64,000 bases of DNA, from NCBI RefSeq assembly GCF_045037415.1, contig NZ_CP173438.1; one strand, written 5' to 3'. A program made the position numbers and the translations under genes. This DNA comes from Escherichia coli. Its GTDB lineage: Bacteria > Pseudomonadota > Gammaproteobacteria > Enterobacterales > Enterobacteriaceae. Below the pieces are notes generated by a model. It ran no database searches and was not told the origin of the DNA. It was given only the letters and a program-made list of their open reading frames with translations. Positions 22,669 to 22,947 of the stretch are shown piece after piece. Numbering within the stretch: the first letter of the stretch is position 1; each line of letters begins with the position of its first letter.

Positions 22669-22947
22669 CGGTGGTGACCTTAATATTTGCGATCAAATAA
22701 TTGCAGATAAATGGGATCATATATCCCGATTTGATAGACACAAAGGAATCATTAAGTCCGAATATTACTCATGTGATGTCACTGAAAATGATTGCGCGCT
22801 GACGTAACGCTTGAGGTGCTGCATAAAGCAGCGACTAAATTGAGATTTTCCTGAATTAGTGAGCTGATCCGCAGCAATATTTTGTTTATCCTGTATTTTC
22901 AGAGGGAATGGAGTGTAACGCTCTGTATTAACAAGGAGAGCATTAAA

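Follow-up and report, generated by a model that had tools for sequence, protein, structure and literature searches.

How murQP is controlled in an Escherichia coli that seems to have no murR is the question raised by the locus analyzed here. MurR/murQP is the textbook regulatory unit for breaking down MurNAc and recycling cell-wall sugars and, to our knowledge, K-12 is the sole source of what is understood about it. The K-12 control region reportedly combines a class I CAP site with face-to-face promoters, with CAP and MurR said to act as roadblocks to murR transcription, and loss of murR reportedly derepresses murQ by ~20-fold, with no lag. MurR acts on two adjacent intergenic repeats to repress both murQP and its own gene, with MurNAc-6-P as the inducer (PMC9177960), and growth on MurNAc is faster in a murR mutant (PMC9177960, Zhang et al. 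2022). In addition, murP is listed under both CRP and MurR regulation (PMC3141248). An earlier note on a 64,000-nucleotide stretch of E. coli DNA, referred to below as the window, held that murR was missing from its usual place next to murQ and that the operon would consequently be "constitutive or CRP-controlled only."

In the window, murQ and murP are co-oriented neighbors on the minus strand with 3 bp between them, and ucpA is followed by cysP, cysU, cysW, and cysA. The gap between murQ and ucpA (22669..22947) measures exactly 279 bp, and no MurR-type gene (divergent, RpiR family, HTH_6 plus SIS, ~285 aa) adjoining murQ was found in it. Three open reading frames (ORFs) touch the gap, at 22499..22807 (+, 102 aa), 22765..23034 (-, 89 aa), and 22882..23739 (mechanical, 285 aa). 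The last was rejected as a regulator because it is ucpA lengthened upstream to an in-frame TTG, i.e., an SDR; its length matches that of MurR by coincidence. When the 64-kb window was searched with K-12 MurR by tblastn, the sole match was the SIS domain of MurQ (E = 6e-5), and an Rfam scan of the gap yielded nothing credible, the one hit being a chance viral match (E = 0.8). Both the ORF list and the tblastn search thus agree with the claim that the gap holds no ORF fit for a regulator of ~285 aa. Over 2.3 kb, the window matches SK1144 at 100% identity; this diffusely adherent E. coli strain is listed under phylogroup B2 (PMC12366417). The window thus derives from a B2 E. coli, and its ucpA product is identical to WP_000517443.1 annotated in SK1144.

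The K-12 reference reads murQ, 163 bp, murR (858 bp), 128 bp, ucpA, so the gene order given in the earlier note was correct and murR is indeed missing from where it sits in K-12. We determined the anatomy of the gap from alignments with K-12 and with a closely related murR+ strain, MS14385, plus a script alignment. The alignment to K-12, which the note had suggested, places the loss at ~0.87 kb, comprising 73 bp of the control region on the murR side and the first ~800 bp of murR, and what is left falls into three segments (Table 1). The murQ-proximal 90 bp form a haplotype unlike the K-12 type, with 10-11/90 differences from K-12 (substitutions at 22683, 22689, 22709-10, 22715, 22730, 22735, 22738, 22740-41, and 22754) and 4/90 from Escherichia albertii. 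We considered these substitutions as decay of an orphan operator and dropped the idea, as the same states occur in E. albertii and the TTGTGT -35 occurs in Citrobacter; judged from these comparisons, the 90 bp are an alternative haplotype that is conserved, not decaying. The next segment, the murR 3'-end remnant, reads NITHVMSLKMIAR up to its stop, in a frame that still shows ..V.SLKMI.R..; it is internally gapped, one of the gaps being a 10-bp deletion found in the E. coli allele only, and 17-18 of 60 positions are unlike either E. albertii or K-12. The last is the former murR-ucpA spacer. Because the remnant is in place and outgroups have murR (see below), the locus reflects loss rather than primary absence; it is a deletion allele with a pseudogene remnant. 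The earlier description of the gap as non-coding therefore stands as far as a regulator ORF is concerned, but the gap is not plain spacer, since decayed murR sequence lies inside it.

Table 1. Coordinates, in the window, of genes, remnants, and predicted sites around the murQ-ucpA gap
Feature	Position	Strand	Basis or remark
pbp4b (yfeW) remnant; in K-12 the gene is third in the murQP-yfeW cluster	20182..20343	-	Alignment
murP, PTS MurNAc transporter EIIBC, intact	20344..21768	-	NCBIfam equivalog NF007152, 942 bits (cut-off 516)
murQ, MurNAc-6-phosphate etherase, intact, 298 aa	21772..22668	-	NCBIfam equivalog TIGR00274, 509 bits (cut-off 302)
murQ-proximal 90 bp of former murQ-murR control region, retained	22669..22758		Alignments
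Promoter-like site directed away from murQ, GTGACC-16-AATAAT	22674..22701	+	Consensus scans, same site in K-12
Conserved box 1, TGGGATCATATAT (K-12 TGGAATCATATAT), over predicted -10	22712..22724		Invariant from E. coli to Citrobacter
Predicted murQ core promoter: -35 TTGTGT (22743..22738), 16-bp spacer, -10 TATGAT (22721..22716)	22716..22743	-	Position-weight scan
Conserved box 2, AGGAATCATTAAGTC (K-12 AGGAATCATTGAGTCT)	22744..22758		Left breakpoint directly after
Decayed murR 3'-end remnant, 61 bp, heavily substituted	22759..22819	+	Alignments and translation
CAP-like half-site TGTGATGTCACTGAAA in murR remnant	22772..22787		Read from sequence, with coordinate transfer from K-12
Former murR-ucpA spacer, 128 bp, essentially unchanged	22820..22947	+	3/129 differences from K-12
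ucpA, SDR-family oxidoreductase, start ATG 22948	22948..23739	+	NCBIfam equivalog NF006080, 541 bits (cut-off 356)

We then screened 5426 complete E. coli genomes with a 151-bp probe spanning the deletion junction. The probe matched 1046 of them (~19%), each time at full length and once per genome, and identity was at least 99% in 1034 of the 1046; carriers include O25b:H4-ST131, E2348/69, NRG857C, and APEC O1:K1:H7. K-12 murR DNA was detected by megablast in 4379 genomes, and blastn sensitive to ~65-70% identity returned the same 4379. The junction and murR genomes are disjoint sets that together account for 5425/5426, the remaining genome being without the locus. No relocated or xenologous murR was found at the DNA level in the murR-less genomes of this set, so that the absence of a MurR homolog elsewhere holds at the level of the lineage; distant RpiR-family paralogues (closest NCBIfam family, PRK11557), among them YfhH, are not MurR, lie beyond the reach of a DNA-level search, and are outside the count. 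With 1046 complete genomes sharing this exact junction, the absence is no assembly artefact. The murR-less allele is fixed in a major lineage, phylogroup B2. The repressor loss that had been proposed for one genome is thus real, but it is a fixed trait of phylogroup B2 and E. albertii and no single-genome oddity.

Other arrangements were also seen in the genomes examined. E. coli Z1323CEC0015 (NZ_CP148423.1; locus L034, 2480..2758) is the only genome in which we saw a B2-type junction and remnant between K-12-type flanks; its K-12-type states extend to the breakpoint itself, and it looks like a recombinant in which the conversion tract apparently stopped at heterology. Among murR+ E. coli, the control region upstream of murQ comprises at least two deeply diverged haplotypes (L010, L007, and L008; ~3830..4000 in L010), namely, the K-12 type and a second type common to E. 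whittamii and Escherichia sp. E1V33. The identity of murR goes down to 93% in 834 genomes, and in the L010 genome murP is frameshifted and pbp4b is absent. In E. coli HH45 (NZ_CP116411.1, ~1404974..1409226), murR is aberrant: blastn aligns it along its full length at 78.7% identity, and megablast covers no more than 47% of it. Of the pbp4b probe, only the final 17% was matched there, in a gene annotated "serine hydrolase"; this locus appears to be another independent rearrangement.

To examine the polarity of the change, we scanned one genome per species on the basis of MurQ and then applied tblastn. The order ucpA-murR-murQ-murP, mostly with pbp4b, was found in two cryptic-clade Escherichia species, E. 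whittamii, an E. coli representative, three Citrobacter species, and Salmonella enterica arizonae. Since the cryptic clades, Citrobacter, and S. enterica arizonae keep murR, the murR+ state is ancestral and the B2 state is a loss. One of the Citrobacter species and S. enterica arizonae have ~1.9 kb with two extra ORFs of 374 aa and ~200-247 aa between murR and murQ (L019 2244..3987; L011 2084..4000). Neither ORF had an NCBIfam match; for C. koseri, a porin and an unknown protein are listed next to murR (PMC13268207).

E. albertii also lacks murR, with 289 bp between ucpA and murQ. Its junction, GGAATCATTAAGTC/CGAATA..., is as in B2, and the junction motif GGAATCATTAAGTCCGAATA was present in 8/8 further E. 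albertii-type contigs retrieved. The two murQ-ucpA loci thus have in common the junction, the substitutions of the left 90-bp haplotype, and an intact murQ; unlike B2, E. albertii does not have the 10-bp deletion of the E. coli allele, and it carries an IS1-split murP and a differently fragmented pbp4b. In E. albertii (L036/L037 4901..7470, e.g., CH991859.1), IS1 splits murP after ~53-61 codons and there is a further internal gap, while pbp4b survives as two fragments only (residues 1-56 and 161-228), a decay pattern unlike that of E. coli B2. Apart from the ~100 bp that surround the junction, B2 sequence is typical of E. coli: its ucpA is 95-100% identical to that of K-12 or MS14385, and its flanking genes are 88-93% identical to those of E. 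albertii. An independent origin of the E. albertii junction was rejected, as the complex junction, the remnant structure, and the left-segment substitutions are all in common. The simplest reading of these comparisons would be one old deletion, later recombined between species or kept as an old polymorphism.

To define what the deletion removed from the control region, we aligned the corresponding regions of murR+ Escherichia and Citrobacter. This footprint alignment contains four conserved blocks: TGGAATCATATAT; AGGAATCATTGAGTCT; a CAP-like AGTGTGAAGAGCGTCATA; and TATGCTGC, near murR. The first two blocks have GGAATCAT in common, repeated 32 bp apart in K-12, and both copies are retained in the window, where they are candidate orphan MurR operators. 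The sole conserved CAP-like site, TGTGAAGAGCGTCATA in K-12 (L001 2573-2588), falls in the deleted 73 bp, and it and TATGCTGC are both missing from the window. A position-weight scan predicts a murQ transcription start site (TSS) in the window near 22709, downstream of a TTGTGT-16-TATGAT core promoter that is also legible in the Citrobacter rows of the alignment. The best murQ-ward sigma-70 candidate of K-12 is TTTAAG-17-TATGAT, with a predicted TSS near L001 2510, which puts the K-12 CAP-like site at approximately -70.5, a class I position. Conservation and consensus matching therefore suggest that the promoter was retained and the CAP site lost. In K-12, one box overlies the -10, the other sits directly upstream of the -35, and a candidate murR-ward promoter lies near murQ; this layout fits the reported control by MurR and CRP. 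A published TSS data set has no entry for murQ or murR.

The retained segment also carries a promoter-like site that faces away from murQ, a candidate for the former murR promoter, now directed at ucpA; a scan of the plus strand detected no terminator-like signal between this site and ucpA. As for symmetry elements, an inverted-repeat finder run on the K-12 control region returned no inverted repeat, and a 6+6 palindrome, ACACTCGCAGAGTGT, is visible by eye in the deleted part. In B2 and E. albertii, box 1 has become a perfect 5-bp inverted repeat, GGGAT-CATAT-ATCCC (22713..22727, -), through an A>G change at 22715. The terminator scan flagged this repeat, but it is probably no terminator, given its location upstream of the TSS predicted for murQ.

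Our preferred reading, to which we attach reasonable though far from full confidence, is that an ancient ~0.87-kb deletion left murQP still in use, expressed from the retained core promoter without MurR and probably without native CAP. The structural part comes directly from the alignments, and from it we infer the consequences for expression. The operon would probably be transcribed from TTGTGT-16-TATGAT with MurR repression absent, and since there is no MurR, murQP would not be induced by MurNAc-6-P. Native activation by cAMP-CAP would probably be lost as well, leaving murQP at a fixed, constitutive level and the two GGAATCAT boxes as orphan operators, and the former murR promoter may read into ucpA. 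A promoter without its CAP site could, however, be very weak rather than constitutively high. Constitutive expression, one of the two outcomes that the earlier note had offered, is thus plausible, while control by CRP only is doubtful because the deletion took the only conserved CAP-like site.

A form of CRP control could nonetheless persist if cAMP-CAP bound TGTGATGTCACTGAAA in the murR remnant, where the native site once was, so that murQP would still be catabolite controlled. The geometry speaks for this idea, as the center of TGTGATGTCACTGAAA (22779.5) lies ~70.5 bp from the predicted murQ TSS, the same distance as the native K-12 site, and its left half is a perfect TGTGA in B2, where K-12 murR and E. 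albertii have TGTGG. Its right half, TGAAA, is poor, being without both cytosines that matter in TCACA; moreover, E. albertii does not share the site, and CAP matches of this quality are common by chance. We therefore regard catabolite control through this half-site as unlikely, and its location where the CAP site used to be may be a coincidence.

A second alternative is that the deletion crippled the operon, leaving a promoter that is nearly silent without its CAP site and a B2 murQP in slow decay, with the losses of murR and pbp4b as first steps and the IS1-broken murP of E. albertii as the next. Both neighbors of murQP are in fact deleted. In the window, pbp4b is cut to short 5' and 3' remnants by a ~1.2-kb internal deletion, and the SK1144 annotation shows an 87-bp pseudogene at this position. 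The pbp4b-deletion junction occurs in 1272/5426 genomes and the pbp4b core in 4152/5426, so this loss is wider than that of murR, with ~227 genomes being murR+ but pbp4b-. In E. albertii, murP is split and pbp4b is fragmented, and the IS1-disrupted murP beside the same allele shows that the locus can be heading for decay. In addition, murQ transcription in K-12 reportedly needs CAP. CRP is also a listed regulator (PMC3141248).

Several lines of evidence nevertheless weigh against such decay in B2. Both murQ and murP are full length in the window and annotated as intact in every junction-bearing genome sampled. Between B2 and murR+ strains, dN/dS is 0.02-0.07 for murQ and 0.013-0.033 for murP, the same range as between pairs of murR+ strains, so murQP is under strong purifying selection in B2. 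B2 and E. albertii show 4/90 differences in the promoter-side segment versus 17/60 in the adjacent, neutral remnant, indicating that the former is constrained and the latter is not. The enzyme MurQ is also required for anhMurNAc recycling, even at low expression. Because the genes are intact, their dN/dS is low, and the promoter segment is constrained, a silent, decaying operon in B2 is distinctly improbable, and murQP appears to be still in use there. Finally, that murR sits elsewhere in the genome, or that the gap stems from an error in the assembly or in the gene order expected, can hardly be credited, as 1047/5426 genomes lack murR DNA even at blastn sensitivity and 1046 have the junction, the K-12 reference has murR between murQ and ucpA, and the murR 3' remnant is still in place.

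Two further intervals near the operon differ from K-12 in length. The ucpA-cysP interval has ~146 extra bases in K-12 (window 23740..23896 versus L001 4411..4713), and the pbp4b-yfeX interval has an extra palindromic insert in K-12 (window 20167..20260 versus L004 2884..3122). Both K-12 extras, which are absent from the window, look like REP-type elements.

The preferred reading, a deletion that left murQP in use from its core promoter, can be set against the systems already described. The K-12 murR-murQP(-yfeW) locus and the window have orthologous murQ and murP at the same chromosomal position (yfeX ... ucpA-cysP), and both contain the murQ-proximal 90 bp with the two GGAATCAT boxes and a TATGAT -10 candidate. 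They differ in that the window has no murR, no conserved CAP-like site, and no pbp4b; the -35 candidate is TTTAAG in K-12 and TTGTGT in the window, among the 10-11 substitutions across the retained segment. Like the window, a laboratory K-12 murR deletion mutant has no repressor, but its control region is complete and still contains the CAP site. Since 73 bp of control DNA is also gone from the natural allele, its expression level cannot be read from the laboratory mutant. Citrobacter and S. enterica arizonae resemble the window in having ucpA with the murQ-murP cluster and the conserved boxes, together with TTGTGT-16-TATGAT in two of the Citrobacter loci (L012/L013), and differ from it in that murR and the CAP-like site are present.

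We found no paper on the loss of murR (yfeT) in B2, ExPEC, or E. albertii in a literature search that was blurred by matches to "Murray"; the absence of murR is nonetheless visible in public annotations. A more far-reaching version of the preferred reading, which we put forward tentatively and consider doubtful, is that the single ancient deletion was exchanged between E. albertii and the B2 ancestor and kept because it was advantageous, with MurNAc uptake and cell-wall sugar recycling hard-wired to a constitutive state independent of inducer and catabolite control and with the orphaned murR promoter driving ucpA. If true, the lineage from which most extraintestinal pathogens come would have constitutive MurNAc uptake and recycling.

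About one-fifth of complete E. coli genomes, those of phylogroup B2, are without murR and its associated CAP-like site, as is E. albertii. Local repressors are commonly lost in evolution, and the significance of this case is modest. However, B2 includes ST131, ST95-type APEC/NMEC, and EPEC E2348/69, and the regulation of murQP described in K-12 should not be assumed for these clinically dominant strains. B2 strains are also natural murR knockouts and offer a setting for testing what repression is worth to the cell, with the lag on MurNAc, the handling of peptidoglycan fragments, and links to beta-lactam responses as relevant readouts.
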